From Candidatus Poribacteria bacterium (GTDB taxonomy: Bacteria; Poribacteria; WGA-4E; WGA-3G): DNA of 64,000 nt. Position numbers and translations under genes: made by a program. Within the stretch, counting starts at the first letter, position 1. The number at the start of each line of letters is the position of its first letter. The stretch spans positions 77,246 through 141,245 of the forward strand of contig CBDAUH010000002.1 in assembly GCA_965200395.1 (NCBI GenBank), given 5' to 3'. A model generated the notes under the pieces. That model saw only the letters and a program-made list of their open reading frames with translations, had not been told where the DNA came from and did no database searches. Of this stretch, positions 26,162 to 44,661 are shown piece after piece.

Positions 26162-27130
26162 TCAAGCTGCTGTTTTATCAGCATTATAATCTGTTCGGAA
26201 TTCACCCATTTCGTTGTAAAGGCTGCTTAATTGCGAAATTGCATAAATTTCTAACTGCCGAATACGTTCTCGTGTAACATCAAGGGCATCGCCGATTTCG
26301 CGTAGTGTTTTACGTTCCCCATCTTCAAGTCCAAATCGCATCTTAAGAACCTGCTGCTCACGCTCAGAAAGTTTGCTCAGGAACTGTTGTACCAAATCAT
26401 GTGTGATCAATTGCGCAATCGCGCCGTCTTCGGAAGTCGTTGCAGGGTCTTCAATCAAATCTCCCAATGTAGCAGAATTCCGGGATGAGCGTTCATCACC
26501 CAATGGTAAATCCATCGAAATAGTATCAGCATTGAATGTAAGAATTTCCTCTACTTGCTGAACAGATAAGTCAAGTGCCTCAGCGATCTCAGCACGTGTC
26601 GGCTCACGTTGAAGTTCTTGACATAGTGCAGCATAGGTTGCATCAAACTTATTCATCTTAGCAACAATATACGCAGGCAACCGAATAGACCGTGCAAAGT
26701 TATCAAGTGTCCGCATAATCGATTGCTTAATCCACCAGATTGCATACGTACTAAACTTAAAGCCTTTTCGATAATCAAACTTACTCACAGCTTTAATTAA
26801 TCCAATATTTCCTTCTTGAATTAAATCCTCGAGTGGGACTTTATTGCCTTGATACTTAACCGCAATAGAAATGACAAGACGCAGGTTAGCCTGAACAAGC
26901 TCATCGCGCGCCGCCGTATCTCCTGCCTCAATTCGCTTTGCTAATTCAACCTCTTCTTCGCGAGTTAACAATCGATGCCCCGCGACACTTCGTAACCAGC
27001 TCGTTAGAGCACTCCTATCACTACCTTTGTAGTCATTTGCATATTCTGTTTCTTCCGAAGGATACACCTCATCCATTAATGTGTCAACACCTTCAATATC
27101 TTCCGTTTCACCGAAGAACTCGGTTTCCAT
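26162..27130 (-). CDS. RNA polymerase sigma70-family factor lacking region 1.1 (group 2 / RpoS-like)
   Basis: [55 protein letters not shown]...TLREIG...[10 protein letters not shown]; start ATG 27130 after AAGGAGAGGAG. Confidence 0.9.
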
Positions 27131-27183
27131 TCTTCTCCTCTCCTTAGTATAAAACTTCAATAAAAAATCTGCCAAATACATAT

Positions 27184-27211
27184 ATTACAATACACTATAA
27201 CGTATTGTCAA
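27184..27211 (-). promoter_or_regulatory. Putative sigma70 promoter for the sigma factor gene
   Basis: Minus strand TTGACA-16bp-TGTAAT about 55 bp upstream of the start. Confidence 0.4.
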
Positions 27212-27368
27212 GCAAATTGTTTAAAAAAAATGGATAAAATTGTGAAATTATTACTGAAAACCTTGAAAATACCATTTTTCACCACTTTTTTCTCAAATTA
27301 CGAACATAAACAAGGTTCTTTAGTCTAAACAATAAATTGCCATGTAAATTTTGCTCAAACTTAGATAG

Positions 27369-27461
27369 CGTGAGTTCGATGTCCGAAATATGAAGACCAT
27401 TTTGTAGCATAACCTTTCCAGGTTGTGCATCCTACAAAAAATGTCTTATTCCAAACTCACG
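27369..27461. repeat. GTAG-type REP enclosed in short terminal IRs (MITE-like unit)
   Basis: CGTGAGTT...GTAGCATAACCTTTCCAGGTTGTGC...AACTCACG. Confidence 0.75.
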
Positions 27462-27754
27462 TTAAGTGTAGTATTTTGTGGGGAGACATTAAACTATTTT
27501 ACATGCCATATCGTCTTAAATAGATAAATTCAAGATAGAACATATACAGATGTCCATTCCGAAACTTGATTAATAAAGTTTCATAAATCCCACACAATAT
27601 TACTTTTCTTAGGCATAAACCACACCCGTGGTAATATAGAAATCTGGTTAAACCAAAAACTATGTATAGTGTGTACTGCTGATTTTAAACTAATTTAGCT
27701 TTCTTACGTCAAAAAAACTCTGATTATCAGCAAACCAATGAGGAACTATAAATT

Positions 27755-29644
27755 ATGTACGGCACCCCTGTTAAGAAATCCCTCGTAGAAGTACTACGCG
27801 AAGCAGACTTGATCTCAGATCAGGATTATCATGAAATTCATGAAAAAATACTTGAAGGTTGGGTGAATAAACCGATCCAATCGGACGGTGATGCAGATGT
27901 TAGTGACGATCAGGCGGGTTTGCAGAGCTACCACCAAATCCTTAATGAAATAGAAAAAGCAGGCGAATCTGAGGAGTCAATCATATCAGAGTACGTGTCA
28001 CCGAGAATCCTTGAACTTGCCAAAAAAGGACGTGAATACGGAACACCTATAACACACTTAGATGATATCAATCCAGAAAAGGAAGCACTTGACAAGGTAC
28101 AACCAAGTTTCGCTAACCGCAATAAGGTTTTTCCAATACAGCTTGAAGACAATATCCTCACTATAGCAGTATCGGACATTCAAGATGTAATGTTGATTGA
28201 CCAAATACGTTATTTCACAGAGTGTGAATTGAATCTTCTTCTTGCCGATGAAGATGAGATTACAGAGGCTATCGTTCGGTTTTACGGTAGGGATGCCGCA
28301 TCAATCCTGAGTGCAGGTATCAAAGGCCCAGTCGGTGCTGCTGCCACAATTGAGCGCGCAAGTATTGAAGACTTCGGTATTGATGAAAAAGACCTCAGCG
28401 AAGACCCGACAGTCGTCGATGCAGTTTATCAGATGATCATTGACGCTGTACGGGCAGGTGCAAGTGATATCCATATTGAACCCTATCCGAGTGAACTAAA
28501 GATTCGTTATCGTGTTGATGGTGTATTAGAAGATCAACCACAACCGCCCGCGTATCTCCAGTCCGCGATTACCTCACGTATCAAAATTCTCGCGGAGATG
28601 GATGTAGCAGAACGCCGCCGTCCACAGGATGGCAAAATTAATATGGAGATCGGCAGCCTCGGTGGTCGTCAAATAGACCTTCGTGTTTCTACAGTACCTA
28701 CTGTCGCTACGCAGCATAGTGAAAGTGTTGTACTCCGTATTCTTGACCGTCAATCTATCGAATTTGGATTAACAGAACTCGGTCTTACACACGATAATTT
28801 TGATCTTTTCCAACGGATGATACATAAACCACACGGAATTATTCTGGCAACAGGTCCCACGGGTAGTGGAAAAACCACATCACTTTATGCATGCTTGAAA
28901 GAGATTAACACGCCGCACGTCAAAATTATTACACTCGAAGACCCTGTTGAATATGAATTAGAAGGGATCAATCAAGTTCAAGTTAATCCTGAAATCGGTT
29001 TCTCATTCGCAAATGGGCTACGCCATATTTTACGGCAAGACCCTGATAAGGTGTTAGTCGGTGAAATTCGTGATGAGGAAACTGCGGAGATGGCAATTCA
29101 TACCTCACTTACAGGACATCTTGTATTTAGTACGCTCCACACAAACGACGCACCTGGTGCTATCACACGTCTGATTGACATGGGTGTCGAACCGTATTTA
29201 GTCGCTTCGACATTGGAAGGGATCATTGCACAGCGTCTAGCAAGGCGTGTCTGCCGCTCATGTTGTGAGATGTATCGACCAAGTAAAGAGGATATTGCCG
29301 GGCTCTTTAGCAACAATGGTGTCAGTGTATCAACTGATCTTGAAATTCCACGCGCTAACGATGATGGCTGCAAAGAGTGCCGGGGTAGAGGTTATAAAGG
29401 TAGAATCGGTATTTTTGAAGTTATTTATATGTCTGAAGAATTGCGTTCACTTTCACTTGAACGCCCCTCAACCAGTGAACTACGTCAACTTGCAATGAAA
29501 ATGGGCATGCGGAGTCTACGCGAGGATGGATGGCAAAAGATAACTGCTGGACAAACAACTATTGCAGAAGTGACTCGACTTACACAAGAAGACGTTTACG
29601 ATTTTAACGAGGATGATACACTCAGCTCTGAATCAGAGTTGTAA
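27755..29644 (+). CDS. gspE: Type II secretion/pilus assembly ATPase (GspE/PilB family)
   Basis: ASDIHIEP, RRPQDG, TGPTGSGKTT, TLEDPVEY, LRQDPD...GEIRD, TGHLVFSTLHTN, tetra-Cys motif. Confidence 0.92.
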   Translation: MYGTPVKKSLVEVLREADLISDQDYHEIHEKILEGWVNKPIQSDGDADVSDDQAGLQSYHQILNEIEKAGESEESIISEYVSPRILELAKKGREYGTPITHLDDINPEKEALDKVQPSFANRNKVFPIQLEDNILTIAVSDIQDVMLIDQIRYFTECELNLLLADEDEITEAIVRFYGRDAASILSAGIKGPVGAAATIERASIEDFGIDEKDLSEDPTVVDAVYQMIIDAVRAGASDIHIEPYPSELKIRYRVDGVLEDQPQPPAYLQSAITSRIKILAEMDVAERRRPQDGKINMEIGSLGGRQIDLRVSTVPTVATQHSESVVLRILDRQSIEFGLTELGLTHDNFDLFQRMIHKPHGIILATGPTGSGKTTSLYACLKEINTPHVKIITLEDPVEYELEGINQVQVNPEIGFSFANGLRHILRQDPDKVLVGEIRDEETAEMAIHTSLTGHLVFSTLHTNDAPGAITRLIDMGVEPYLVASTLEGIIAQRLARRVCRSCCEMYRPSKEDIAGLFSNNGVSVSTDLEIPRANDDGCKECRGRGYKGRIGIFEVIYMSEELRSLSLERPSTSELRQLAMKMGMRSLREDGWQKITAGQTTIAEVTRLTQEDVYDFNEDDTLSSESEL

Positions 29645-29704
29645 GGACTAACTTGTAATTCCTCTTAAACAACTTATAAAATTGCTTTCAATGAGAGATT
29701 AACA

Positions 29705-30931
29705 ATGCCAAGATTTCAATATGAAGCCATCACCAATGCCGGACAAACTGTCAGCAGTACCTTAGAAGCTGATTCCAGAGGAGAACTTATATCCCAATTG
29801 ACGCAGATGGGATACTGGCCAACGAAAGTTGTAGAAGAGGGTGAAATCCTTGAAACCAAAGCTAAACGTTTAATTGGCATCGGAACGCGGAAGATCAAAC
29901 CGGCTGAAGTAGAATTTTTTACGTATCAGTTGGCAGCATTGGTGAACGCACACGTCGCCCTCCCGCGCGCGATAGAAGTCACATTAGAACAGATTTCGAA
30001 TCCAGAGTTGAACCGAGTCATCTCGCAAGTCAAATATGACGTTGAACACGGAGCAACATTTAACGATGCCTTGAAAGAGCATCCAAAGGTTTTTTCTGAA
30101 CTTTATGTTAACATGGTCAAAGCGGGAGAAGCTGGGGGCGTATTAGGTGAGGTATTAGAACGTTTAGCTGAATTTGCTGAACGTCAACGCCTCCTAAAAA
30201 ACCAAGTTGTCTCTGCCTTGTTCTATCCAGCTATCCTCTTCGGACTAATGATGTTATCCGTTGCTGTTTTGATGATCTTCGTTATTCCGAAGTTCACGGA
30301 AATGTTTGCGGATCTTGGAGGTGAATTACCATTTCCCACACTCGTCCTTATCGGTATTTCAGATACGCTGGCGAGTTATTGGTGGATAGGGATATTAGTC
30401 GCTGCTCCTATCTTTATATTACTCAGAAATTACCTGCAGACAGATACCGGCAAAATGCAGTTTGATAAATTAAAAACGAAGTTACCGCTTGTAGGAGAAA
30501 TATTTAGCACATTTGCCGTTGTTCGCTTTACACGTACGTTAGCAACCCTATTGGAAAACGGTGTCCGTATGTTGCCTGCTTTACAAGTCGTAAAAGATAC
30601 CATCGGCAACAAGTTTTATAGCAATATCATTGCCGAAACAGAAATAGAAGTGGAACAAGGATCAACACTATCCCGAGAACTTGAAAGGCGTAAAGACTTT
30701 CCTACGCTCGTCACCCACATGATCGCTGTAGGTGAAGAATCTGGAGAACCTGTTACGATGTTAACAAAGTTATCTGAATACTACGATATGGAAATTAAGA
30801 AAAGTCTTGAAAGGGTAACAGGTTCAATAGGACCTATAGTTATCCTGATAATGGGGCTGCTCATCGGATTTATCGCTGTAGCAATGATTTTGCCAATATT
30901 CGAAGTGAACACTTTGATCGACCAAGGGTAA
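29705..30931 (+). CDS. gspF: Type II secretion inner membrane platform protein (GspF/PilC)
   Basis: MPRFQYEA, YVNMVKAGEAGG, SALFYP, VIPKF..MF...G.ELP..T, MIAVGEESG, ILPIF. Confidence 0.92.
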   Translation: MPRFQYEAITNAGQTVSSTLEADSRGELISQLTQMGYWPTKVVEEGEILETKAKRLIGIGTRKIKPAEVEFFTYQLAALVNAHVALPRAIEVTLEQISNPELNRVISQVKYDVEHGATFNDALKEHPKVFSELYVNMVKAGEAGGVLGEVLERLAEFAERQRLLKNQVVSALFYPAILFGLMMLSVAVLMIFVIPKFTEMFADLGGELPFPTLVLIGISDTLASYWWIGILVAAPIFILLRNYLQTDTGKMQFDKLKTKLPLVGEIFSTFAVVRFTRTLATLLENGVRMLPALQVVKDTIGNKFYSNIIAETEIEVEQGSTLSRELERRKDFPTLVTHMIAVGEESGEPVTMLTKLSEYYDMEIKKSLERVTGSIGPIVILIMGLLIGFIAVAMILPIFEVNTLIDQG

Positions 30932-31039: not shown

Positions 31040-31501
31040 ATGTTTAAACAGATTAAAACAGACGAATCAGGACTAACACTGATTGAGTTGACGATCGTCA
31101 TCGCGATTTTAGGTATTCTGGCTGCATTTATCGCCCCTCGCGTGATAAATGCTATTGACGATGCCAATGTTGGGAAAGCACAGACAGAGATCGCTAATCT
31201 TCGAGTATCATTATCAAAATTTTCGATAGATGTTGGCAGATATCCATCATCGGAAGAGGGGTTGGATGCGTTATGGCGTTCTCCAAGCCAGGAACTTACA
31301 AACTGGCGAGGGCCTTACGTAGAGGACCCAATTTCCGTAGATCCCTGGGGCAATGATTATGTCTATCGCTACCCCGGAACACACTATGGATATGATTACG
31401 ATCTGATGTCTTACGGTAAAGATGGAAAGCTTGGCGGTGAAGATTTTAACAAAGATATCACCAATTGGGTTGACGAACAAGAATCTGCCAGCACTCGGTA
31501 A
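31040..31501 (+). CDS. gspG: Major pseudopilin GspG
   Basis: Prepilin motif G/LTLIEL, DVGRYPSSEEGLDAL, NWRGPY, DPWGNDYVYRYPG, SYGKDGKLGGE. Confidence 0.93.
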   Translation: MFKQIKTDESGLTLIELTIVIAILGILAAFIAPRVINAIDDANVGKAQTEIANLRVSLSKFSIDVGRYPSSEEGLDALWRSPSQELTNWRGPYVEDPISVDPWGNDYVYRYPGTHYGYDYDLMSYGKDGKLGGEDFNKDITNWVDEQESASTR

Positions 31502-31535
31502 AACCAAATTGTTAGAAAAAATTAAACCCCGCAGA

Positions 31536-32168
31536 ATGCAAGCTTACCAAAGACCAACTACCGCTAAGGCAAATGCAGAAGACGGTTTTAGTCTTATGGA
31601 AATAATGGTCGTCCTGGCGATTATTGCCGTTTTGTCCTCCGTATCTATGCCCGCGTTGCGCGGTTTCGCCGCAACGCGGCGGTTAAAAACTTCCGCGAAG
31701 ACAATCGTTGATACACTTGCATTCGCCCGGGACATGGCAATTACTGAAAAAAATACGCACCTTGTAGTCTTTGATATGGATGCAAATAGATATTGGTTAG
31801 CATCAAGTGAAACATTTGATATACAAAACCCAGCAGCTTCCGCAGGAAGAACTATAGAAACTGCTCAAGTAAATGGCCGACAAGTGATGGTTTCCCGAAC
31901 TGATGGAGTCATGGGAATCCCACAGCCACTAAATAGAGGCGTTTCGATTGCATCCTTAGTTACAACACAAAACGGAGCGAACCAACAAATTATTGCTGGC
32001 GTAGATTACGTATATTTTTCTCCAACTGCAACATCGGTAGATACTGTTGTATATCTACGAAACCTTAATGATGATGTCATTGCAATTAATGTGGAAGCAG
32101 CGACTGGGCGATCCAGTCTTCAACAGTTGTCACCTCAACAAATTCAGACCTTAGGCTTACGGAACTAA
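31536..32168 (+). CDS. gspH: Minor pseudopilin (GspH/FimT-like)
   Basis: G/FSLMEIMVVLAII, LAFARDMAI; position in operon; start reassigned to ATG 31536. Confidence 0.75.
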   Translation: MQAYQRPTTAKANAEDGFSLMEIMVVLAIIAVLSSVSMPALRGFAATRRLKTSAKTIVDTLAFARDMAITEKNTHLVVFDMDANRYWLASSETFDIQNPAASAGRTIETAQVNGRQVMVSRTDGVMGIPQPLNRGVSIASLVTTQNGANQQIIAGVDYVYFSPTATSVDTVVYLRNLNDDVIAINVEAATGRSSLQQLSPQQIQTLGLRN

Positions 32169-32173
32169 AGTGT

Positions 32174-32587
32174 ATGATAGGCAAACGAACTTTTTTCTCT
32201 TGTGAAGATGGATATACACTTGCAGAGATACTTGTGACTATAGCAATTATGGCTGCAATATTACCCGCGTTGCTAAAGGTATTTAGTGACACCTCAAGCA
32301 ACATCGGTAAAACTGATCATCGTATCACCGCACTCTATTTACTCCAATCTAAAATGGCGGAGATTGAAGCAAACGGCTTTCCAGAAACTGGACAAGAAAG
32401 CGATGTGTTCGGCGGAAACTCCATCTTTGAGTGGCAAACTATAGTAACAGACATAGAAACTGAGGAAATGTTAGCACTCCGAAAGGTCGAATTAACCGTC
32501 TCTTGGGAACATTTGGACAAGATCCATTCGACAAGCATGTATAGATACATAGCAGATAGAACAATTCAACAACAACAAGGACAATAA
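32174..32587 (+). CDS. gspI: Minor pseudopilin (GspI-like)
   Basis: G/YTLAEILVTIAI, LRKVELTVSW; size and position. Confidence 0.75.
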   Translation: MIGKRTFFSCEDGYTLAEILVTIAIMAAILPALLKVFSDTSSNIGKTDHRITALYLLQSKMAEIEANGFPETGQESDVFGGNSIFEWQTIVTDIETEEMLALRKVELTVSWEHLDKIHSTSMYRYIADRTIQQQQGQ

Positions 32588-32633: not shown

Positions 32634-33515
32634 ATGAGAAATCTGATGAAGAAGTGCCAAAGTGGACTTACACTTGTTGAGATGCTAACGGCTGTGAGTG
32701 TCATAATAATTTTGGGTGGAGCCTCATACGCTGTCTTTAATACTGCTATAGATACATATCATCTTGCAGAATCCAAATTAATTCAAGCACAACGGGTACG
32801 CTTCGCTTTAGACCATTTAAGCACAGACCTGAGTCACATACAAGCAGACACATCAGATGAATTGTTGACTCTCTTCTCACAAGATTCACCTACTGCTGCA
32901 GGTGATACGGATATACTTAGTTTTGTGACATTGGTTAGAACGGATCCAGAATTGTTTGCGGAACAGGTGCGAGTAAGGAAAAGTATAGGGCAAACAACGC
33001 AGACACTACCCCTAAGCGATGTCCGTCGTGTAGTGTATTATGTGGGGCAAAAAATACCTATAGAGATGAGACGAAACGAGAACTATATTCCACCCCCTTA
33101 CACTGCTTCACAGGTACCAGGACAAAACACCTCTGAGGAGGAAGACCTAGCACTTTACCGAATTGTAACTACAGCATTGGACCCAGAATTGGTTATTGAC
33201 GCATTTATGAACTCTGGAACGATTCCACAAGTAGATGAAAGTGGTGCACCAATTGACTTTAAGGTTACGCCATTAATTGATGCCGGGGTCGTCAACTTCG
33301 ATCTTAAGTATTACGATGCAGAAGCACCTTATGACTCATGGACACAGACAAATGCAATTCCACTTGTCGTTCAAATATTGATTAGTGTAATAGATGAAGA
33401 AGCGAGACAAACCCCACAGACACAAAATTTTGTTCAGACTCCCGGTGCAGTACCACCAGGCGCATTAACCCAATCAGTTATGGTGAATCTGCCGCCAAGC
33501 GCAAATGCTGAGTAA
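32634..33515 (+). CDS. gspJ: Minor pseudopilin (GspJ-like)
   Basis: G/LTLVEMLTAV, VVYY, LYR, FDLKYYD...DSW....IPLVVQI. Confidence 0.75.
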   Translation: MRNLMKKCQSGLTLVEMLTAVSVIIILGGASYAVFNTAIDTYHLAESKLIQAQRVRFALDHLSTDLSHIQADTSDELLTLFSQDSPTAAGDTDILSFVTLVRTDPELFAEQVRVRKSIGQTTQTLPLSDVRRVVYYVGQKIPIEMRRNENYIPPPYTASQVPGQNTSEEEDLALYRIVTTALDPELVIDAFMNSGTIPQVDESGAPIDFKVTPLIDAGVVNFDLKYYDAEAPYDSWTQTNAIPLVVQILISVIDEEARQTPQTQNFVQTPGAVPPGALTQSVMVNLPPSANAE

Positions 33516-33523: not shown

Positions 33524-35182
33524 ATGCATACATCAACGACCAAACCACAGATTGAAAAATACATATTTAGCATGTCCTGCCTCCGCGATTCCAGTGGATT
33601 ATCGCTTATTTCAACGCTTTGGATTTTGACCGTCCTCTCTGTTTTGGCAATGCAGATGTTGTACTCTTATAATCTCGAAAGTAAAGCACAGCGGAACTTC
33701 TTTGATAGAGTTAAACACCGTTACGCAGCAAAGTCAGGGTTCGAGTTAGGCGTTGCAAAATTAGCTGTTGATCAAACCAATTTTGACTCACTCGGAGAAT
33801 CATGGGCAGCACCAATTCAACAGCAGATTGAAGATGGTATACGGCTCGGAGAATTCATTAACTATCAGGTGACTATCACAGATGAAGCAACGAAAATCGA
33901 CATCAACGCGGCAGCAGAAGATCAAATACGCAATCTGCTCTCGTTTTTAGGAGCACAACCCGAAATCAATGAATTGGGTGATCTTGCAACTCGAATTGTT
34001 GAGGGGCGCCCCTATCGCACTGTACGAGATGTGGCACGCGTACAAGGAATGACAGATGAACTACTCTACGGATTACAGCAACAAGCTGCAGTGCAAGAAG
34101 CAACAAGCGGCTCCGAACCCCTAACAGATACGCCAGAAACTGTACTGCCACCGACGCTAACGATGACAAGTGTCGGCGGTCTCGTTAATGTCGCAACCAT
34201 CTATTCTGTTGACACGAACACAGATTCAAATGGACAGCAACGAGTCAATATCAATTCCGCAAACGCCCAACAGATACGACAAATTCAATCTAATAACAAT
34301 CAGAACATCTTTTCGCAAGGTGAGGCGAATGCAATTGTTCAGAGTCGTGATCACAGCGGTATTTCTGCTTTGTTAGATGTTCAAGTTGTATCTGATAACG
34401 TGTTTAATAGCATTCAAAACCAAATTTCTGTTGAAGATACTGCAAGTAGTAATGATAGTGGTTTTAGCACCGGGAATGACGGCGGTTTCGGCGGAGAAGA
34501 TGATTTTGGTTTTGGTAATGGAGATGATGGTGGTTTCGACGGCGGAAGAAATAATAATAACAACTTTAATAACTTTAATAACAACAATAATAACTTTGAA
34601 GAAGATACAGGTAATTCAAGAATCAACATCAATACAGCAAGTTCACAAGAACTTCAAGAACTTAATGGCATTGATAGCGGTATCGCTGATAGGATTATCG
34701 CCCATAGAAACTCCCAAGGGCAATTCCAAAACATTGACGCAATTAAACAGGTAAAATTATTAACTGTTCGTGAACTTGCAAATATCGCTGATAAAGTAAC
34801 AACAAAAGATGGAAATACTGTAAACGGGTTAATCAATATAAATACCGCACCCGTCGAAATATTGCAGCTATTACCCGGAATGGATCAGACCAAGGCACAA
34901 GCAATTGTAACTCGACGTGAAGAAGAAAATCCAAACGCACAAAACCAATCAGAAGACGCAATTAAAGGAAACCCGTTCACTGATATCGCACAACTATTGG
35001 ATATTGAAGAAATCGATGATCAAACCTTCCGAGAAGTTGTAGATTGGGTTACATACCGTTCGCACGGATATCGCGTTGAAGCATCCGGCATTGACGCTGG
35101 TGGGAAGGTCGTGGCAACGTGTGTGGGAATCGTCGTTCGAAATGGAAACCAATTAACCATTCCATATTGGCGACAAGATTAA
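33524..35182 (+). CDS. gspK: GspK-like tip pseudopilin with extra ComEA-like helix-hairpin-helix domains
   Basis: G/LSLISTLW (no E+5, typical of GspK), DSLGESWA, ITDEATKIDIN; four xININ-initiated HhH/SAM-like units. Confidence 0.8.
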   Translation: MHTSTTKPQIEKYIFSMSCLRDSSGLSLISTLWILTVLSVLAMQMLYSYNLESKAQRNFFDRVKHRYAAKSGFELGVAKLAVDQTNFDSLGESWAAPIQQQIEDGIRLGEFINYQVTITDEATKIDINAAAEDQIRNLLSFLGAQPEINELGDLATRIVEGRPYRTVRDVARVQGMTDELLYGLQQQAAVQEATSGSEPLTDTPETVLPPTLTMTSVGGLVNVATIYSVDTNTDSNGQQRVNINSANAQQIRQIQSNNNQNIFSQGEANAIVQSRDHSGISALLDVQVVSDNVFNSIQNQISVEDTASSNDSGFSTGNDGGFGGEDDFGFGNGDDGGFDGGRNNNNNFNNFNNNNNNFEEDTGNSRININTASSQELQELNGIDSGIADRIIAHRNSQGQFQNIDAIKQVKLLTVRELANIADKVTTKDGNTVNGLININTAPVEILQLLPGMDQTKAQAIVTRREEENPNAQNQSEDAIKGNPFTDIAQLLDIEEIDDQTFREVVDWVTYRSHGYRVEASGIDAGGKVVATCVGIVVRNGNQLTIPYWRQD

Positions 35183-37079: not shown

Positions 37080-37144
37080 AAAATAAAAAACAAATTTGCA
37101 CCTCGTTGCACATACCAACCTACAGAGTAGGTGAGGATATAACT

Positions 37145-38503
37145 GTGAAATTAGATTTTGAACTTACAAACCAAACAAAAATATTGCTCGGAATCCTTGT
37201 AGTCGCACTGATAGCAGCAATCGTAACACAATGGGGACCCGGACTCTATAAAATCATCTCAAATCCTGCCATGGAAACTAAGAGAGAAACTTTAAAAACA
37301 TCTAAAGATTTAGTGGATGCATCCAAAATATTGAAACCTAATGAGACAGGACTATACCGAAAAACTGGACTTACAGGCGAGGACAAAACCACCACAATAT
37401 TTGATGGAAATTATCCAGCTTCGGTTGTGCGTAAAAAAATAGATGGCATTGTAAAAGAAGCTGGAATACCTCAAGCTTACCAGATAAATTACGAAGCTGT
37501 TCCCGATAAAAAATCTGAAAGAATATCTCCACAGGCACGACGAAATCTCGCTATGTTCGCCTATCAGGAAAAATTAATTGCTGAAAAGAACGCACTTAAT
37601 GCTGAATTGGAAGCCGAATCTCAACCACAACCTGAAGTTGATATCGAAGCTGACGCCATGGATATGTTTCTCGATGCCTGGTTAGATGAAGCAGATGCAG
37701 AATCCGATAACCAGAAAGAAAAATCCGAAAATAATGTTTATAACGGAGAAGAGGGAACCACTGAAGAACAAAAACAAGAAACACCAGAAAAATCAGCTGA
37801 TACCGAAAATGGTAAGGAAGAATCTTCAGAACCCTCCGAAGAATCAGAAGAAAAACCAGCTGATACCGAAAATGATAAGGAAGAATCTTCAGAATCCTCC
37901 GAAGAATCAGAAAATAATCAAACTGACACTGATGATACTGATGATACTATTGAGTGGGAGTTTGCATCATTACCCGATTCCATACCGAATTCAATTAGGA
38001 TTGAACTTATTGAACTCATCATACCGATGGTAGAACAGCATCTCATTGGGGCTGAGAAAACGCTTTTTGAAAACCATTACTTCAAAACTCAAACGAAAGC
38101 AACCTCTGGATTCTTCGGAATCGGTGCTAAAGAATCTGCGAATGAAATCAGCTTTCGTCCAAATAGTCAAGTGCTCGCTAAACTCACAAATCTCGTTGAC
38201 ACTTATGGGGAAGAGTTAAACAAACAAAAAATTAGGATAGATTTCCTTGAATACATGGATAGGATTCAATCGCAAATTGACGAACTCACGTTAAAATTAC
38301 AATTGGCCCCCACTGTCTATACGCCAGAAAGTTATATCGTAAAAATGAAGTTTAAAGCAGAAATCGATAAACTCGTTAACCTAAACAAGATAATAGAAAC
38401 CACAAGTAAATGGTTGATGGTCCGAGACCTACAAACCTCCGTTGACCGAAAAGATAATAAGATTAATGTAGATGTTTTAATGATTGCGAGGGTTTACCAG
38501 TAA
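37145..38503 (+). CDS. Bitopic membrane protein, probable PilO/GspM-like component with large acidic insertion
   Basis: GTG start after GAGGA; N-terminal TM; C-terminal VKMKFKAEIDKLVNL...WLMVRDLQ resembles the PilO ferredoxin-like fold; TAATG coupling to the secretin. Confidence 0.55.
   Translation: MKLDFELTNQTKILLGILVVALIAAIVTQWGPGLYKIISNPAMETKRETLKTSKDLVDASKILKPNETGLYRKTGLTGEDKTTTIFDGNYPASVVRKKIDGIVKEAGIPQAYQINYEAVPDKKSERISPQARRNLAMFAYQEKLIAEKNALNAELEAESQPQPEVDIEADAMDMFLDAWLDEADAESDNQKEKSENNVYNGEEGTTEEQKQETPEKSADTENGKEESSEPSEESEEKPADTENDKEESSESSEESENNQTDTDDTDDTIEWEFASLPDSIPNSIRIELIELIIPMVEQHLIGAEKTLFENHYFKTQTKATSGFFGIGAKESANEISFRPNSQVLAKLTNLVDTYGEELNKQKIRIDFLEYMDRIQSQIDELTLKLQLAPTVYTPESYIVKMKFKAEIDKLVNLNKIIETTSKWLMVRDLQTSVDRKDNKINVDVLMIARVYQ
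37786..37911 (+). repeat. 63-bp intragenic tandem repeat (2 copies)
   Basis: EKSADTENGKEESSEPSEESE / EKPADTENDKEESSESSEESE. Confidence 0.85.
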
Positions 38504-41500
38504 TGAAAATGTGCAGTAATGATGTTTGTCCAATGTGGGTACGTAAACTTAATTCTTTCTTGATTGTCCTGGTGTGTCTCGGCTTATTCACCCTTACTCC
38601 AGGAGACCTGTTCGCGCAACGGGGTCAGGGTACGATGGAAGTCACTGAACGGGATGAGGAAACCGGTGAACCACTACGCTTCACCTTCAACTTTACCAGT
38701 GATGAAATCAAAAACGTCTTCGAATGGCTCTCACAACAAACCGACCTCACTATCATCGCAAGTGAAAACGATATACAAGGCAAAAGATTTTCACTCATAA
38801 ACCTCAATAATGTTACACTCGATGAGATTATTGAAAAAATCAAAACTGTCCTCGCTCAGCAGAATCTAACCTTCGTTAGGGTTGATAGCACTCTCCTTGT
38901 GACTACCTTTGATAAAGCACTGACTATGAATGTGCCTGTTAAGATAATAGAGGCAAACCCTGAACTGGTTGAAATGACTGATGAGATACAGACATATATT
39001 ATACAGTTGGTAAATGCGTCTGCATCGGAGCAAGTCAACACACTAAAACCTTTATTGAATAGACAGGCGAATATCTTTGCGGACTCGATGACGAATGCTC
39101 TTGTGATCACAGATGTGTCCTCTAATGTGCGTAGGATCGTCTCTATTCTGCAATTTGCGGATGAGGGTGATCCGTCGCCATTAAAGATCGCTTTAGTTCC
39201 GCTCACTTATGCGGATGCGCAGTCTCTGAAACAAACATTTGATGGTGTATTTGATGATAGCAATCAAGAAGATAACAAACCGCCAGGAACACAGGTTGCT
39301 ATGAGTCCTGAGGAGATCAGGCAAGCTATTGAACAAGGTTTGGGAGTGCCATTGGTTGAGGGGATGGTTAAAGTGGAGGCAGATACTAACTCAAATACGT
39401 TGATCATCAAAGCCTCCGAAGATAATATAACGCTCCTTAAAGAAATTGTTCTTCATCTGGACAAAGCCCCATCACTCTCAACAGATATTCGCACATATCG
39501 CCTCGAGTATGCAATAGCCGAAGATGTCGCAACTACCCTCGAAGAAATCATCACTGGAGAAAATATCCAAGGGGGCGGCAGAAGAAGTTTCGACAGAGAA
39601 GATATCTTAGAAATGATGACATACCGCCGGAACCGAGGTGACTCGAGCGACATTTTTCAAGGTATCGTCGGCTTAGTAAACATTTCACATGATGATCGGT
39701 TGAACATCGTCATTATCTCCTCGGATCCACGCAATTTCACTATCATTGAGAAGATCATCGAAGTCCTTGACCAAAAGCAAACAGAAAATGAATTCAAAAT
39801 GTATCTACTCGAATTTGCAAATGCAGCAACACTTAAGGAAAATCTAACCCAACTGTTCGAGGGTGAGGATACAGGCGGGGATAGCTACTATTGGTGGGAC
39901 CGAAATAGGAGCTCAAACCAGGATACCGGTTTCGGTGTCCAAGGAACCGTCCATATTGTTGAAGATATTAGACTTAATGCTTTGCTCATTTCTACCTCTG
40001 CTAATAATTTTTCAATGATCGATGACCTGATTAAAAAACTCGATGTCAACTTGCCTGACCAGGAGTGGGCTTCGAGAATCTTTTATCTCAAATATGCCGA
40101 TGCTGAAAATATAGCAAATCTGATTAACACACATTATCAAGGAAACCAAGACGACTTTAGCGGAGGAGATAGCTACTATTATTATCGCTACTATCTGCCC
40201 CAACGCCAATCAACGCCACAAGCACAAGGTTCTCTAGCAGGGAATGTCGCAGCACAACCTTTAGCAAGCCATAACGCCCTAATCGTATCAACAGGGACAA
40301 AACGTAACTTTGAAATGATAGAAGACTTCATCAAACAACTCGACATACCGACACCTGAACCAATGGCGGAAGTCACCGAAATAATCCGACTCGAATATGC
40401 AACGGCAGCGTCTATTGCTCAGGTACTCGAACAAGTATGGCAAGAGGTACAATCAGAAGATGAAGGATTCGGTTTTCGTAGATTTTTCAGCTCAAGATTC
40501 AGTGAAGAAGAACCCACTGACATCAATTCACTCTTCGGTAAAGTCACTATCTATGCTGACCCAGATACAAATTCACTCATTGTCACCACCCGTCGACGCT
40601 ATCTTGACCAGGTGAGAGCACTCATAAACAGACTCGATTTCGTGCGGGGACAGGTGCGGATCGATATTAAAATACTTGAAGTTACACTGGATGAAACAAC
40701 AAAACTCGGTATTGAAATGGCTGCCAATGAAAAGAAACTCGGTGGACTCGAACTCAGTCCAATTAACCCGCTAGTCGGGGAAACAAACGCAGAACTCGGT
40801 CTCGCCCAAGAAATCTCAGGTTTCAATTATAGCTTGGTTACCAAAGAGTATATGGCACTCCTTCATACTCTCATCCGTGAAAATAAAGTCAAAACGCTCT
40901 CTACACCGACTATCACGACACGGGATAGTCGTCCTGCAACATGGAGCAGTGGACGTAGAATTCCATATCTACAAAGCGTAGATACCAACAGTATCCTCGG
41001 AGATACCGCAACACAACCACTTTTCAACTACGATTTTATAGACCCACCGGTCGGTATAAACATCTCGCTCACACCTTATATCGCAAGATCACAAGCGGAT
41101 GAAGATGGCAAACGAACAATCGGATTAGATATAACCAATATCAGTGCCAGCAACTTCATCGAATTCACCGATTTTAACGCACCCATAACAGACGACAACT
41201 CCCTCAGTGTCTATATCGACGTTGAAGATGGACAACAACTGATTGTCGGTGGGATCATTCGCAAGAAACAGAAACAAGTAGAAAACAAAGTACCTATACT
41301 CGGAGATATTCCTTTACTCGGAAGACTCTTCAAGAGCACAGAAACCGAAATTCAAGACACCGAAATTGTGTTCATTATAACTCCTCACATCATAGATATA
41401 AAGAACCCAGAGGATTTGGAAAAACTGAAGCAGAGAGAAGAAGATTGGCGAAAAAATGGGCAGATCGATTTAGATAAATCAACCAAATCTGACAAAAAGG

Positions 41501-41517
41501 GCGCAAACGAAAAGTAG
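38503..41517 (+). CDS. gspD: Secretin (GspD-like), copy 1, N0 + six NolW-like repeats
   Basis: Signal peptide; repeated L.YA.A...D...N.LI motifs; QVRIDIKILEV, LSTPTITT, LIVGGII, KVPILGDIPLLGRLFKS, VFIITPHII. Confidence 0.9.
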   Translation: MKMCSNDVCPMWVRKLNSFLIVLVCLGLFTLTPGDLFAQRGQGTMEVTERDEETGEPLRFTFNFTSDEIKNVFEWLSQQTDLTIIASENDIQGKRFSLINLNNVTLDEIIEKIKTVLAQQNLTFVRVDSTLLVTTFDKALTMNVPVKIIEANPELVEMTDEIQTYIIQLVNASASEQVNTLKPLLNRQANIFADSMTNALVITDVSSNVRRIVSILQFADEGDPSPLKIALVPLTYADAQSLKQTFDGVFDDSNQEDNKPPGTQVAMSPEEIRQAIEQGLGVPLVEGMVKVEADTNSNTLIIKASEDNITLLKEIVLHLDKAPSLSTDIRTYRLEYAIAEDVATTLEEIITGENIQGGGRRSFDREDILEMMTYRRNRGDSSDIFQGIVGLVNISHDDRLNIVIISSDPRNFTIIEKIIEVLDQKQTENEFKMYLLEFANAATLKENLTQLFEGEDTGGDSYYWWDRNRSSNQDTGFGVQGTVHIVEDIRLNALLISTSANNFSMIDDLIKKLDVNLPDQEWASRIFYLKYADAENIANLINTHYQGNQDDFSGGDSYYYYRYYLPQRQSTPQAQGSLAGNVAAQPLASHNALIVSTGTKRNFEMIEDFIKQLDIPTPEPMAEVTEIIRLEYATAASIAQVLEQVWQEVQSEDEGFGFRRFFSSRFSEEEPTDINSLFGKVTIYADPDTNSLIVTTRRRYLDQVRALINRLDFVRGQVRIDIKILEVTLDETTKLGIEMAANEKKLGGLELSPINPLVGETNAELGLAQEISGFNYSLVTKEYMALLHTLIRENKVKTLSTPTITTRDSRPATWSSGRRIPYLQSVDTNSILGDTATQPLFNYDFIDPPVGINISLTPYIARSQADEDGKRTIGLDITNISASNFIEFTDFNAPITDDNSLSVYIDVEDGQQLIVGGIIRKKQKQVENKVPILGDIPLLGRLFKSTETEIQDTEIVFIITPHIIDIKNPEDLEKLKQREEDWRKNGQIDLDKSTKSDKKGANEK

Positions 41518-41534
41518 TCCCTACAAGAAAAGAT

Positions 41535-41634
41535 AATTCCGCGTAATCTGGTGAATGCCCAAAAGGCATTTATATGGTTGATTTGGTGAAAATCCGAGAT
41601 TCTGAAAAAATACTTACATCGAACCTACGTTAAC
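41535..41634. repeat. Degenerate copy of the CGCGGATT/AATCCGCG repeat family plus a MITE-like end
   Basis: AATTCCGCGTAATC...AAATCCGAGATTCTGA and CGAACCTACGTTAA between the two secretins. Confidence 0.45.
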
Positions 41635-41667
41635 TGCTAAATTCGAATAATCACAAGGGAATGCTCA

Positions 41668-44661
41668 ATGACTTTAGAACATAACAATTTGTTGAATGCA
41701 CTATCATGGAAATACTGCAAATTATGCATTTTTTCTCTCGCCTGTTTCTTATTATTCGCACTTATGCAGGGGGATCTATTGGCACAACGGGGTCAGGGTA
41801 CGATGGAAGTCACTGAACGGGATGAGGAAACCGGTGAACCACTACGCTTCACCTTCAACTTTACCAGTGATGAAATCAAAAACGTCTTCGAATGGCTCTC
41901 ACAACAAACCGACCTCACTATCATCGCAAGTGAAAACGATATACAAGGCAAAAGATTTTCACTCATAAACCTCAATAATGTCACACTCGATGAGATTATT
42001 GAAAAAATCAAAACTGTCCTCGCTCAGCAGAATCTAACCTTCGTTAGGGTTGATAGCACTCTCCTTGTGACTACCTTTGATAAAGCCTTGACTATGAATG
42101 TGCCTGTTAAGATAATAGAGGCAAATCCTGAACTGGTTGAAATGACTGATGAGATACAGACATATATTATACAGTTGGTAAATGCGTCTGCATCGGAGCA
42201 AGTCAACACACTAAAACCTTTATTGAATAGACAGGCGAATATCTTTGCGGACTCGATGACGAATGCTCTTGTGATCACAGATGTGTCCTCTAATGTGCGT
42301 AGGATCGTCTCTATTCTGCAATTTGCGGATGAGGGTGATCCGTCGCCATTAAAGATCGCTTTAGTTCCGCTCACTTATGCGGATGCGCAATCTCTAAAAC
42401 AAACATTTGATAGTGTGTTCGATGATAGCAATCAAGAAGATAACAAGCCGCCGGGAACACAGGTTGCTATGAGTCCTGAGGAGATCAGGCAAGCTATTGA
42501 ACAAGGTTTGGGAGTGCCATTGGTTGAGGGAATGGTTAAAGTAGAGGCAGATACCAACTCAAATACGTTGATCATCAAAGCCTCCGAAGATAATATAACG
42601 CTCCTTAAAGAAATTATTCTCCACTTAGATAAAGCCCCGTCCCTCTCAACAGATATCCGCACATATCGCCTCCAATATGGCATTGCCGAAGATGTCGCAA
42701 CAAACCTTGAAGAAATTATTACGGGCGGCGCAAGCCAAAGTAGAGGATTTGGCAGATGGGAAGCCGAAAAAATGCGTGCTACCCGACGCGAACGCGGCGA
42801 ATCAGGAAATATCTACCAAGGTATCGTCGGAACAGTAAACATCTCACATGATGATCGACTGAACATCGTTATCGTCTCCTCGGATCCACGCAATTTCACT
42901 ATCATTGAGAAAATCATTGAAGTCCTTGACCAAAAACAGACAGAAAATGAATTCAAGATGTATCTACTCGAATTCGCAGATGCAGCAACGCTCAAAGAAC
43001 AATTAACCGAGTTGTTCGAAGGCGGAGATGCAGGCGGGGATAGCAACCGGTACTGGTGGGATTGGGACAGTAGATCATCGTCAAATCAAGACACCGGTTT
43101 CGGTGTCCAAGGAACTGTTCACATCGTTGAGGATATTAGACTTAATGCCCTGCTCATTTCTACCTCCGCCAGCAATTTTCCAATGATTGACGATCTGATT
43201 AAAAAACTTGATGTCAACTTGCCAGACCAAGAGTGGGGTTCAAGAATCTTTTATCTCAAATATGCTGACGCTCAAAATATAGCAAATCTGATTAATACAC
43301 ATTACCAAGGCAACCAAGACGATTTTAGAGGCGGTAGCAGCTACTCTTACTACAGATATTATCTGCCGCAACGGCAATCAACCCCGCAAGCACAAGGATC
43401 CCTGTCCGGGAACGTCGCCGCTCAACCTTTGGCAAGTCATAACGCACTCATCGTATCAACAGGCACAAAACGAAACTTTGAAATGATAGAAAGTTTCATC
43501 AAACAACTCGATATACCTACACCTGAAGAACAAGCAGAAGTCACAGATATAATCCGACTCGAATATGCAACCGCAACTTCCATTGCTCAAGTACTTTCGC
43601 AAGTCTGGCAAGACCAACCAGGTGAGGATGACGGATTCGGTTTCTTTGTGTTTTTTGACGATGACAGACGATCTCAGGAAGAATCAACAGACATCAATTC
43701 ACTCTACGGTAAAGTCACTGTCTATGCCGACCCAGATACGAACTCGCTTGTAGTTACTACGCGCAAACGGTATCTTGAGCAGGTAAGATCCCTCATCAAA
43801 CAACTCGATTTCGTGCGAGGACAAGTGCGGATTGATATTAAAATACTTGAAGTGACGCTTGACGAAACAACAAAACTCGGTATTGAAGCAGCTGCCAATG
43901 AGAAAAGACTTGGCGGTCTTGAACTTAGTCCTATCAACCCACTTACCGGGGAAACAAACGCAGAACTCGGTCTTGCACAAGAAATCTCAGGCTTCAATTT
44001 TAGTTTGGCAACAAAAGAATATTTGGCTCTACTTCACACACTTATTCGTGAAAATAAAGTCAAAACGCTCTCTACACCAACCATCACAACCCGAGATAGC
44101 CATCCTGCAACATGGAGCAGTGGCCGCAGAATTCCATATCTACAAAGCGTAGATACCAATAGCATCCTCGGAGATACCGCAACACAACCACTTTTCAACT
44201 ACGATTTTATAGACCCGCCGGTCGGTATTAATATTGCACTCACACCTTATATCGCCAAATCGCTTGCAGGGGAAGATGGCAAGCGAACAATCGGATTAGA
44301 TATAACCAATATCAGTGCCAGCAACTTCATAGAATTCACCGATTTTAACGCACCCATAACAGATGATAACACGCTCAGTGCTTATGTCGATGTTGAAGAT
44401 GGACAACAACTGATCGTCGGCGGAATCATTCGCAAAAAACAGAAACAGGTAGAAAACAAAGTACCTATCCTTGGTGATATTCCTCTACTCGGAAGGCCAT
44501 TCAAAAGTACTGCAACCGAAGTTCAAGATACTGAAATCGTATTCATTATAACTCCTCACATCATAGATATAAAGAACCCAGAGGACATTAAAAAATTGAA
44601 ACAGAAAGAAGACGATTGGAAGAAAAACGGGATGAACGAATTCGAGAATTCCGAAAAGTAA
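41668..44661 (+). CDS. gspD: Secretin (GspD-like), copy 2
   Basis: Same architecture as copy 1; 41785-42615 nearly identical to 38617-39447. Confidence 0.9.
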   Translation: MTLEHNNLLNALSWKYCKLCIFSLACFLLFALMQGDLLAQRGQGTMEVTERDEETGEPLRFTFNFTSDEIKNVFEWLSQQTDLTIIASENDIQGKRFSLINLNNVTLDEIIEKIKTVLAQQNLTFVRVDSTLLVTTFDKALTMNVPVKIIEANPELVEMTDEIQTYIIQLVNASASEQVNTLKPLLNRQANIFADSMTNALVITDVSSNVRRIVSILQFADEGDPSPLKIALVPLTYADAQSLKQTFDSVFDDSNQEDNKPPGTQVAMSPEEIRQAIEQGLGVPLVEGMVKVEADTNSNTLIIKASEDNITLLKEIILHLDKAPSLSTDIRTYRLQYGIAEDVATNLEEIITGGASQSRGFGRWEAEKMRATRRERGESGNIYQGIVGTVNISHDDRLNIVIVSSDPRNFTIIEKIIEVLDQKQTENEFKMYLLEFADAATLKEQLTELFEGGDAGGDSNRYWWDWDSRSSSNQDTGFGVQGTVHIVEDIRLNALLISTSASNFPMIDDLIKKLDVNLPDQEWGSRIFYLKYADAQNIANLINTHYQGNQDDFRGGSSYSYYRYYLPQRQSTPQAQGSLSGNVAAQPLASHNALIVSTGTKRNFEMIESFIKQLDIPTPEEQAEVTDIIRLEYATATSIAQVLSQVWQDQPGEDDGFGFFVFFDDDRRSQEESTDINSLYGKVTVYADPDTNSLVVTTRKRYLEQVRSLIKQLDFVRGQVRIDIKILEVTLDETTKLGIEAAANEKRLGGLELSPINPLTGETNAELGLAQEISGFNFSLATKEYLALLHTLIRENKVKTLSTPTITTRDSHPATWSSGRRIPYLQSVDTNSILGDTATQPLFNYDFIDPPVGINIALTPYIAKSLAGEDGKRTIGLDITNISASNFIEFTDFNAPITDDNTLSAYVDVEDGQQLIVGGIIRKKQKQVENKVPILGDIPLLGRPFKSTATEVQDTEIVFIITPHIIDIKNPEDIKKLKQKEDDWKKNGMNEFENSEK

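Follow-up and report, generated by a model that had tools for sequence, protein, structure and literature searches.

What kind of machine does an unusual run of secretion genes in Candidatus Poribacteria encode, and what would it carry across the envelope? The genes in question, together with a sigma factor gene beside them, occupy positions 26162-44661 of a 64,000-nucleotide stretch (here called the window) of contig CBDAUH010000002.1 (assembly GCA_965200395.1, positions 77,246 to 141,245 of the forward strand). A preliminary description of this DNA had depicted an atypical type II secretion system (T2SS) or pseudopilus machine with hybrid Gsp and Pil parts, a tip subunit rich in helix-hairpin-helix (HhH) modules, twin giant secretins and a divergent alternative sigma factor. 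We conclude that the cluster is a lineage-specific build of the well-known T2SS, common to the phylum, and not a new kind of system. Judged from its sequence and that of its relatives, it is probably the T2SS of Candidatus Poribacteria, with protein export as its most likely function and a single long operon running from gspE to the secretin gene or genes.

The listing of open reading frames (ORFs), scanned against Pfam (16 ORFs, and a further 34 from the window) and, for the cluster proteins, scored with NCBIfam, confirmed the full gene list from gspE to the secretins. All of the genes of the preliminary inventory (gspE to gspK, a PilM fusion and two secretins of about 1000 residues) are present, and all lie on the + strand. 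The run opens with gspE (27755-29644), which encodes an assembly ATPase with an MshEN-type N-domain (T2SSE, E 1.1e-128; MshEN, E 2.3e-17), and gspF (29705-30931), which encodes a platform protein matched by T2SSF in two stretches. Five pilin-like genes follow: gspG (31040-31501; TIGR01710; class III signal G/LTLIE, with the slash at the cleavage site) for the major pseudopilin, the gspH-like (31536-32168; G/FSLME), gspI-like (32174-32587; TIGR01707; G/YTLAE) and gspJ-like (32634-33515; TIGR01711; G/LTLVE) genes for minor pseudopilins, and gspK (33524-35182) for a tip pseudopilin of 552 residues that matches HHH_3, T2SSK and TIGR00426 and contains an acidic, Gly/Asn-rich linker. The ORF listed for gspH begins at 31422, overlapping gspG, and places the N_methyl match at residues 54-74; the later ATG at 31536 is the likelier start. 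Next come a GspL equivalent of 589 residues, a PilM-type fusion (35224-36993; PilM_2, 113.7 bits), and a bitopic protein of 465 residues in the GspM/PilO position, which matches no Pfam or NCBIfam family (37106-38503). The run ends with two secretins of the GspD type, copy 1 of 1004 residues (38503-41517) and its tandem paralogue, copy 2, of 997 residues (41668-44661). No match to the GspC, prepilin peptidase or PilT families was found among the 16 and 34 window ORFs scanned, in agreement with the earlier statement that the cluster holds none of these genes.

The same arrangement recurs throughout the phylum. Of 7994 candidates scored in a search with GspK, 496 proteins reached E ≤ 0.001; the best 120 of these, examined for domains and names, all combine HHH_3 with T2SSK, and the nine among them with an organism name all belong to Candidatus Poribacteria. 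When species-representative genomes were scanned with an alignment of 12 GspK proteins, 122 relatives were found, and 80 loci were kept, 76 labeled Poribacteria and four "uncultured bacterium." By tblastn with the window proteins, gene order and strand are identical in 80/80 loci for the genes held, and the genes missing from individual loci coincide with contig ends. Recurrence of the gene order at every one of these loci rules out a chance pattern. Median identity to the window proteins over the best high-scoring segment pair is 69-71% for GspE and GspF, 44-51% for GspH to GspK and the GspL equivalent, and 34% for the 465-residue protein. The ORFs up- and downstream, when clustered, differ between clades, and this clustering revealed no further conserved secretion gene flanking the cluster in the other loci; the neighbors include solute symporter, DUF3352, HEAT-repeat, thiamine pyrophosphate (TPP)-enzyme, haloacid dehalogenase (HAD), halogenase, GT2, squalene-hopene cyclase and tetratricopeptide-repeat genes. 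In 24 loci a HEAT-repeat gene (about 396 residues) stands directly 5' of gspE in the same orientation, and in one of these, L031 (1608-3636), it lies between the sigma gene and gspE; the window's own HEAT/PhyH gene is located elsewhere (50157-51749, - strand).

The family scores place the major subunit and the outer membrane channel with the T2SS. GspG reaches 136 bits with the GspG model TIGR01710, above its cut-off of 88.85 (Pfam T2SSG, E 2e-36), and the best pilin model, PilA, is far weaker (27.5 bits, cut-off 400). Both secretins pass the GspD model TIGR02517 (391.8 and 376.4 bits, cut-off 351.35) and remain below the cut-off of the PilQ model TIGR02515 (about 210 bits, cut-off 284); among solved structures, the secretin's ten top-scoring relatives are all GspD (115 to 82 bits), with PilQ entries at 64 bits or less. 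GspF scores 380 bits with its own model, TIGR02120 (cut-off 424), and 313 bits with the best PilC model. Class III signals are present in all five pilin-like genes, and GspK alone lacks Glu at +5. Such a replacement of Glu by Ser is expected of the capping subunit GspK, and the residue at +5 after its cleavage glycine is indeed Ser, S30 being nearly invariant in the 12-protein alignment.

Several observations weigh against the T2SS assignment. The ATPase scores 564.5 bits with the GspE model (cut-off 630.25) and 568.3 bits with the PilB model (cut-off 675.65), and its best solved relatives are PilB proteins, from Geobacter and Myxococcus (5tsg, 439 bits over residues 92-613), with EpsE at 384 bits over residues 214-613, where it matches the ATPase part alone. 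PilB matches best over the full length because the N-terminal domain is common to both proteins. In plasmids, tblastn with GspE matched ATPases with generic GspE-family names at 38-44% identity, a result without discriminating power. The best models of all four minor pseudopilins remain below their cut-offs (GspH, 44.7 bits vs. 80; GspI, 35.2 vs. 44.35; GspJ, 32.5 vs. 64.85; GspK, 76.2 vs. 130). There was no match to the gspC family in the cluster or the window, a gene elsewhere in the genome lying outside the search, and gspC is listed as mandatory in the T2SS model of TXSScan, according to the accessible part of its description (PMC6668835). The GspL equivalent of the window matches neither T2SSL nor GspL_C, and BLASTP against E. 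coli GspL returned nothing similar (best E 0.05). Finally, it is position, topology and weak matches that suggest the 465-residue protein as the equivalent of GspM or PilO.

Some of these features would suit a surface type IV pilus, used for adhesion or motility, in place of a secretion system: an ATPase with a PilB-type MshEN N-domain and PilB proteins as its best solved relatives, and a GspL equivalent that is PilM-like not only by its PilM_2 score but also by the 127.2 bits that it reaches with TIGR01175 (cut-off 133). We nevertheless regard a pilus as quite improbable, given a major subunit that passes the GspG equivalog cut-off and matches PilA far more weakly, and a secretin of the GspD type. 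PilT/PilU, PilP, PilY1 and a PilQ bearing AMIN domains were found neither in the window nor within 10 kb of the cluster at the other loci. The same holds for a prepilin peptidase (GspO/PilD).

The PilM-like protein has counterparts in other phyla. The GspL equivalent consists of an actin-like PilM_2 domain (residues 9-336), a hydrophobic stretch at about residues 368-388, a PilN/GspL-like periplasmic part and a Pro/Asp-rich tail, an arrangement that suits a GspL. At E ≤ 0.1, PilM_2 matches 41/41 orthologs, PilN 19/41 and T2SSL 16/41. Look-alikes in the ESM Atlas (scores 0.95-0.96) are proteins of 510-580 residues that combine PilM_2 with PilN, GspL_C or T2SSL, and they come from six phyla: Bdellovibrionota, Sumerlaeota, Thermodesulfobacteriota, Armatimonadota, Myxococcota and Planctomycetota. 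In published comparisons, as far as the accessible text goes, the PilM-PilN complex is the ortholog of GspL, PilO that of GspM, and PilP corresponds to the HR domain of GspC (PMC4471445). Since PilM-PilN is orthologous to GspL, since the Atlas look-alikes span six phyla and in view of the domain matches of the orthologs, the fusion is a common form of GspL, and probably the older one, and does not represent the mixture of Gsp and Pil parts that had been proposed. Within its coding sequence, the tail (window positions 36900-36993) contains a tandem repeat in which EDIDVPPPS(N/D)DIQ occurs twice.

The 465-residue protein, which has a homolog in 75/80 loci, is harder to place. An AlphaFold2 model built with 41 orthologs (mean predicted local distance difference test score [pLDDT], 71) shows a membrane helix at residues 22-42 that is followed by a coiled coil and a small alpha/beta module; a disordered acidic insert (196-282) separates these from the alpha-beta domain at the C terminus. 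Foldseek found no match to this model in the PDB at E ≤ 1e-3. The matches to PilO (2rjz/5uvr) are local, with a probability of 1.0, a root mean square deviation of 2.3 Å over about 60 columns and an E of about 0.05, and Amuc_1100 of Akkermansia matches in fold with a probability of 0.95 (Foldseek E for Amuc_1100, about 0.03-0.06). T2SSM_b matches three of the 41 orthologs (best E 0.011). In hhalign comparisons, neither E. coli GspM (probability 0.2) nor HofO (0.7) matched; the profile retrieved from the PDB sequences acid-rich chance matches, the best being the ryanodine receptor (E 0.0086), and the comparison with shorter proteins yielded four fragments of the same protein and nothing else. 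In the ESM Atlas the protein falls in its own cluster (0.91), with a T2SSM cluster at rank 23 (0.88). The earlier account of a PilO/GspM-like protein with an acidic insert thus stands as regards the acidic stretch, which is modeled as disordered, and is weakly supported as regards the likeness to PilO or GspM. In the DNA of the insert (37700-37950), a Glu/Ser-rich unit is duplicated, with paired hairpin matches at 37823-37905.

GspK stands out by its HhH modules. HHH_3 matches it with 113 bits in two stretches and T2SSK with 46.5 bits, and the ComEA HhH model TIGR00426 is exceeded (80.7 bits, cut-off 53.1); the four modules begin at residues 125, 241, 367 and 437. An exhaustive search of 1.84 billion representatives returned 4311 matches at E ≤ 0.001, 455 at E ≤ 1e-10 and 18 at E ≤ 1e-30. 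Among ten distant matches that were looked up, the names included "FCB group bacterium," "Armatimonadota bacterium," "PulK" and "ComE-like DNA-binding protein." All 40 of the distant GspK-like proteins tested (427-571 residues) match both HHH_3 and T2SSK, often over the same residues, contrary to the idea that an HhH-rich GspK is unique to this system. Because the two models match the same residues in distant GspK proteins, the HhH signal belongs to the GspK fold itself. Module starts, counted with the pattern h-N-h-N-[TSA]-A, number three to four in Poribacteria; among the 40 distant proteins there are none in one protein, one in 13, two in 20 and three in six, and E. coli K-12 GspK has no start by this strict pattern. 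Since HhH modules are common elsewhere, what is specific to the phylum is their number. We found no paper linking GspK with the helix-hairpin-helix.

These modules invite the suggestion that the cluster builds a DNA-uptake (competence) pseudopilus with ComEA-like HhH modules as the DNA binders at its tip; uptake of nucleic acid or another polymer had also been raised in the preliminary description. ComEA (8dfk, E 2.4e-11) is the best match of the GspK profile among solved structures, followed by XcpX (8e-4); the TIGR00426 cut-off is exceeded; and Joint Genome Institute (JGI) labels for three GspK homologs denote ComE(A)-like DNA-binding or HhH proteins. The hairpins and the charge of GspK tell a different story. 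ComEA has the hairpins G-V-G and G-I-G, whereas the 12 Poribacteria GspK proteins carry invariant G-I-D and G-M-D (D384 and D454), and the second hairpin of their modules lacks glycine. The DNA-binding domain of ComEA is basic. GspK has a net charge of -32 and an isoelectric point of 4.47; its four modules range from -9 to +1, and none exceeds +2 in any of the 12 orthologs. The fold signature is therefore present without the G-h-G hairpins and basic surface of ComEA-type DNA binding. The acidic charge and altered hairpins are evidence, although not proof, against non-specific DNA binding by GspK, which is disfavored. In addition, the HhH signal is a property of the GspK fold, the secretin is of the GspD type, and no comEC, dprA or comF was seen among the window ORFs scanned. 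We consider nucleic-acid uptake very improbable. An AlphaFold2 model of GspK from 12 sequences was poor (mean pLDDT, 54); its six best Foldseek matches are XcpX/GspK chains, with ComEA also among the matches and none reaching E 1e-3. BLASTP against E. coli GspK aligned the N-terminal helix alone (E 5e-4).

We then asked what the size and number of the secretins mean. Segment scans of copy 1 delimit an N0-like domain at residues 63-134 (below the cut-offs), six Secretin_N domains at 165-217, 230-324, 330-426, 432-516, 524-618 and 625-712 (36.8-52.9 bits, cut-off 28.2), and the secretin core at 790-965. Among the secretin ORFs extracted from the loci, 89/90 have 975-1020 residues, and the remaining one (542 residues) is cut by a contig end, so that a "giant" secretin is the norm of the phylum. 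On the plain reading, the six N-domains should form a longer periplasmic vestibule; that this might serve a wider periplasm is conjecture.

The two secretins of the window are identical at 861/977 aligned residues (88%). A twin secretin is found in 19/59 loci with at least 6.3 kb of sequence after the gene for the 465-residue protein, and the other 40 have a single copy; in two further loci the start of a second copy lies at the locus end. All of the twins fall within one major clade, and in the 20 loci from which the two copies could be extracted whole, both are intact (992-1002 residues). An assembly artifact was considered as the source of the twin and rejected, because 20 other assemblies, all independent, contain the pair with both members intact. 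A tree of 91 secretins shows copies 1 and copies 2 as sister groups within each subclade and not as two phylum-wide groups. At the DNA level the window copies are a mosaic, 84% identical overall but 98-100% identical over nucleotides 150-750, 56% over the first 150 nucleotides and about 60-72% near nucleotides 1050-1200 and 1950-2100; comparable mosaics are seen in 19 other pairs, which are 72-92% identical overall. The copies differ chiefly in their signal peptides, their C-terminal tails and loops within N-domains three and six, and only one alignment column distinguishes the paralogs in at least 80% of 20 pairs. The mosaic near-identity suggests gene conversion, and an old tandem duplication that has been partly homogenized in this way would best explain the pattern; repeated duplication is a possible alternative source of the pairs. 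At locus L039 (79-597, - strand), a secretin-like tblastn match about 3.7 kb 5' of gspE suggests a further secretin gene nearby.

Large secretins bring up the question of cargo. In Myxococcus xanthus, GspD (about 90 kDa when mature) forms slime nozzles and is essential, and its depletion lowers slime secretion, as stated in the accessible part of PMC12475490; a polymer-exporting role has likewise been proposed recently for M. xanthus GspD and cyanobacterial PilQ. Myxococcota also have PilM-type GspL clusters that resemble the window's. Together with a large secretin with six N-domains and a tip pseudopilin that has extra modules of a polymer-binding fold, this would be compatible with a machine that exports a non-protein polymer, such as exopolysaccharide or slime, through the large secretins. 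We find this unlikely, if the most deserving of attention among the rival functions. No glycosyltransferase, polymerase or Wza-type gene is conserved beside the cluster, whose flanks vary between clades; the full set of pseudopilins with a GspG equivalog is typical of T2SSs that secrete protein; and the nature of the myxobacterial slime is itself left open in the accessible text of PMC12475490. The large secretin of M. xanthus is of the GspD type and its phylum also has the PilM-type GspL. Slime export by this secretin was established by experiment in M. xanthus; for Poribacteria it would be pure conjecture. A bolder picture, to which we attach only a slim chance, would have the pseudopilus act as a piston that moves a non-protein polymer (exopolysaccharide, slime or nucleic acid), with the HhH modules as its grip, the six-ring vestibule as a guide, the twin secretins as two specialized or mixed channels on one platform, and an envelope-sensing sigma factor of the extracytoplasmic function (ECF) type as the switch.

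In the protein-exporting T2SS that we favor, homology with T2SSs that have been studied suggests the following course. The GspE ATPase would bind to the PilM-like domain that the GspL equivalent exposes in the cytoplasm, and GspE and GspF would jointly drive the assembly of a short GspG pseudopilus, primed and capped by GspH, GspI, GspJ and GspK. This pseudopilus would push folded periplasmic proteins through the GspD-type secretin, whose six N-domains, compared with the three of E. coli K-12 GspD, would lengthen the periplasmic vestibule. The 465-residue protein would take the GspM/PilO place beside the periplasmic part of GspL, and the prepilin peptidase would be encoded elsewhere in the genome. 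As no GspC is encoded in the cluster or the rest of the window, the link from platform to secretin would have to be made in another way. The cargo may consist of hydrolases, for example the sulfatases that are abundant in Poribacteria genomes.

How would such an operon be controlled? The sigma-70 family gene (26162-27181, - strand) is transcribed divergently from gspE and lacks a match to region 1.1, as had been described; regions 1.2, 2, 3 and 4 are present (Pfam). The spacer, put at about 620 bp in that description, is in fact 573 bp (27182-27754). A sigma-70-type promoter-like site of the sigma gene itself, TTGACA-N18-TAATAT (27182-27211, - strand), forms an invariant block in 15 aligned spacers. 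Directly 3' of the sigma gene lies a NifU-like gene (25525-26139, - strand), with which it probably forms an operon. The sigma gene adjoins gspE in 32/68 loci with at least 3 kb of upstream sequence, and the NifU gene is present in all 32, directly 3' of sigma on the same strand in the loci that were checked. The linkage is thus kept in part of the phylum and absent from the rest, where the upstream genes are a solute symporter, DUF3352 and HEAT-repeat set (24 loci) or a TPP enzyme and a HAD hydrolase (nine loci). Mapped on a midpoint-rooted FastTree phylogeny of GspE and GspF, it occurs in all 30 scored rows of one clade, to which the window belongs, in the basal locus L031 of a second and in L071 near the base of a third. 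This distribution needs two changes on the tree, and the linkage may therefore be ancestral and twice lost.

These facts bear on the proposal that the adjacent sigma is an alternative factor, possibly a regulator dedicated to the cluster. The divergent arrangement in 32/68 loci and its possibly ancestral state would fit that role. The best NCBIfam models of the protein, however, are those of RpoD, all below cut-off (291 vs. 555 bits). Among its best 120 homologs, which are 58-95% identical, five are named "RNA polymerase primary sigma factor" (JGI) and one "sigma-70 family" (NCBI). Its median best-pair identity across the loci is 89%, compared with 34-71% for the secretion genes. Because regions 1.2 and 3 are present, it is not of the ECF type, whereas the motif upstream of gspE (see below) is, and that motif is kept in loci without the adjacent sigma gene. 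At loci L044, L046 and L057, the 3.1-4.2 kb of sequence 5' of gspE contain no sigma gene, and three homologs (66-75% identical) appear, by indirect signs, to be located elsewhere on these chromosomes. With the NifU gene as its constant companion in the linked loci, this sigma is most likely, from its sequence, of the primary or housekeeping type and a neighbor of the secretion machine, not a part of it. Our favored reading of its position is old synteny without a functional tie, and we give little credence to a dedicated regulator. Orthologs have about 313-339 residues in the window's clade, in comparison with about 419-430 in more distant Poribacteria, so that this clade seems to have lost about 100 N-terminal residues of the protein.

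Alignment of 15 spacers showed bipartite blocks on the gspE strand that point to a different kind of control. The pattern TAAAC-N16-18-CGTC is found on the + strand within 800 nucleotides upstream of gspE in 74/74 loci (94 matches, with two copies in 20 loci); elsewhere, both strands of 2.78 Mb contain six scattered matches, and 0.13 would be expected upstream. A stricter form, AAAC-N16-18-CGTCT, occurs in 64/74 loci. In the window one copy, with N17, lies at 27490-27515 (+ strand; the longer consensus is TTAAAC(T/C)T...CGTCT(T/A)AA) and a second, with N16, at 27686-27710 (+ strand), 45 nucleotides before the gspE start. A related motif, CGAAC-N17-GTCTA, is located at 27301-27327 (+ strand), and CGAAC-N16-18-GTCTA is present within 800 nucleotides upstream in 31/74 loci (0.13 expected). 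Position by position, the half-sites are fixed and the sequence of the spacer between them differs between clades. ECF promoters typically have AAC in the -35 element and, for sigma X, W and M of Bacillus subtilis, CGT at -10, according to the accessible text of PMC5758882, and the pattern upstream of gspE has an AAC -35 element, a CGT-type -10 element and a spacing of about 16-17. Two results speak against this interpretation of the pattern: within the window alone neither motif is rarer than in shuffled sequence, so that the weight falls on conservation across genomes, and neither the window nor the flanks of the 80 loci showed an ECF sigma gene. Most likely, gspE is transcribed from ECF-type promoters by a cognate sigma encoded outside the window. 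The search for structured RNA gave nothing at Rfam gathering scores in the whole window and nothing at E ≤ 1 in 27150-27800, and RNAalifold predicted 0 pairs in 16 gspE leaders.

A third TAAAC-N17-CGTC is found in the window at 14973-14998 (+ strand), 5' of an IS630-type transposase gene (15095-16147). The genes after that transposase encode an outer-membrane efflux protein (16283-17632), an HlyD-type adaptor (17635-19590), another transposase (19736-21028) and an ABC ATPase (21198-21878), and the whole of 14973-21878 (+ strand) could be an operon for export that belongs to the same regulon and was broken up by insertion sequences. At the other end of the gspE run, a hairpin at 44749-44768 (+ strand), after the last secretin, is a weak candidate for the operon end; shuffled sequence contains at least as many terminator-like sites as the region does overall, and a scan for sigma-70 promoters and terminators within the cluster gave counts near those of shuffled sequence.

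The comparison with described systems shows where the Poribacteria cluster is ordinary and where it is not. The gspC-O cluster of E. coli K-12, the canonical T2SS, has nearly the same order, E, F, G, H, I, J, K, an L equivalent and a protein in the M position, and the two share GspG and GspD proteins that pass the equivalogs, a GspK without Glu at +5 and the lack of a retraction ATPase. In contrast to the canonical system, the secretin comes last and not second, GspC and GspO are absent from the cluster, GspL is PilM-like, and GspM is replaced by the 465-residue protein of no known family. The secretin has about 1000 residues with N0 and six N-domains, vs. 650 residues with N0 and three in E. 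coli GspD; GspK has 552 residues and four modules that match HHH_3, vs. 327 residues in E. coli, where only T2SSK models match at E ≤ 0.1. T2SS-like clusters outside the Proteobacteria (Myxococcota, Bdellovibrionota, Thermodesulfobacteriota, Planctomycetota, Armatimonadota, Sumerlaeota and the FCB group) have a PilM-type GspL and a long HhH-containing GspK, as in the window. Their GspK proteins are 26-43% identical to that of the window and mostly have one to three module starts, compared with three to four in Poribacteria. Akkermansia offers a more distant likeness in the pilus-like cluster Amuc_1098-1102: the Amuc_1101 model matches the GspL equivalent over its first 235 residues (E 4.4e-34; 118 vs. 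a cut-off of 650), and the tail of the Poribacteria secretin matches the Amuc_1098 family (77 vs. a cut-off of 750), both scores being far below the cut-offs. Most of the parts that seemed atypical, then, reflect a nomenclature centered on the Proteobacteria and are ordinary outside that group.

Specific to the phylum are the four-module GspK, the six-N-domain secretin, the 465-residue protein without a family at the GspM position and the lack of GspC in the cluster, and we also count here the clade-limited twin secretin with its concerted evolution and the ECF-type promoter motif. The preliminary view of a lineage-specific T2SS variant is borne out, the order being the same in 80/80 loci, and we found no published description of it. 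This architecture is phylum-wide and its parts recur elsewhere, but we found no described T2SS subtype with the same sum of features. Judged by title and abstract, with subscription genome papers outside the search, no work on a Poribacteria secretion system was found, and the T2SS remarks in the accessible text of PMC5735121 relate to sediment metagenomes.

The remainder of the window is rich in insertion sequences. Directly after the second secretin lies a type ISP restriction-modification gene (44825-49661, + strand) that looks split: an ORF of 1396 residues ends within the C-terminal specificity domain (profile positions 1-160/342), and an ORF of 154 residues (49197-49661) covers profile positions 216-340. 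A sulfatase gene on the - strand is in two pieces, an N-terminal one (12547-13185) and a C-terminal one with SGSH_C (11034-11936), between which sits an ORF associated with DDE_Tnp_1 (11981-12520). Further transposases are encoded at 52004-53263 (+ strand, DDE_Tnp_1) and 58386-59304 (+ strand, IS630, in two overlapping ORFs). A BatA/VWA/DUF58/MoxR set at 54213-63889 (- strand) resembles an aerotolerance (Bat) operon into which an IS630 copy and AAA_14/DUF4143 ORFs have been inserted.

None of these points overturns the current understanding of type II secretion. They indicate that what textbooks describe as the T2SS is a special case of the Proteobacteria and that elsewhere GspL stays PilM-PilN and GspK keeps its HhH modules; in the Poribacteria cluster, moreover, there is no GspC, and the secretin exceeds the usual length by half. 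For specialists, the questions raised are how a GspC-less platform makes contact with a secretin of six N-domains, and why one clade keeps two intact secretin genes that exchange sequence. The apparently universal ECF-type promoter, if real, would tie secretion to envelope signaling. Poribacteria are abundant, uncultured sponge symbionts with large sets of sulfatases and glycoside hydrolases. In the papers searched, no export route for these enzymes is described, and the cluster, conserved throughout the phylum, is the obvious candidate for one.

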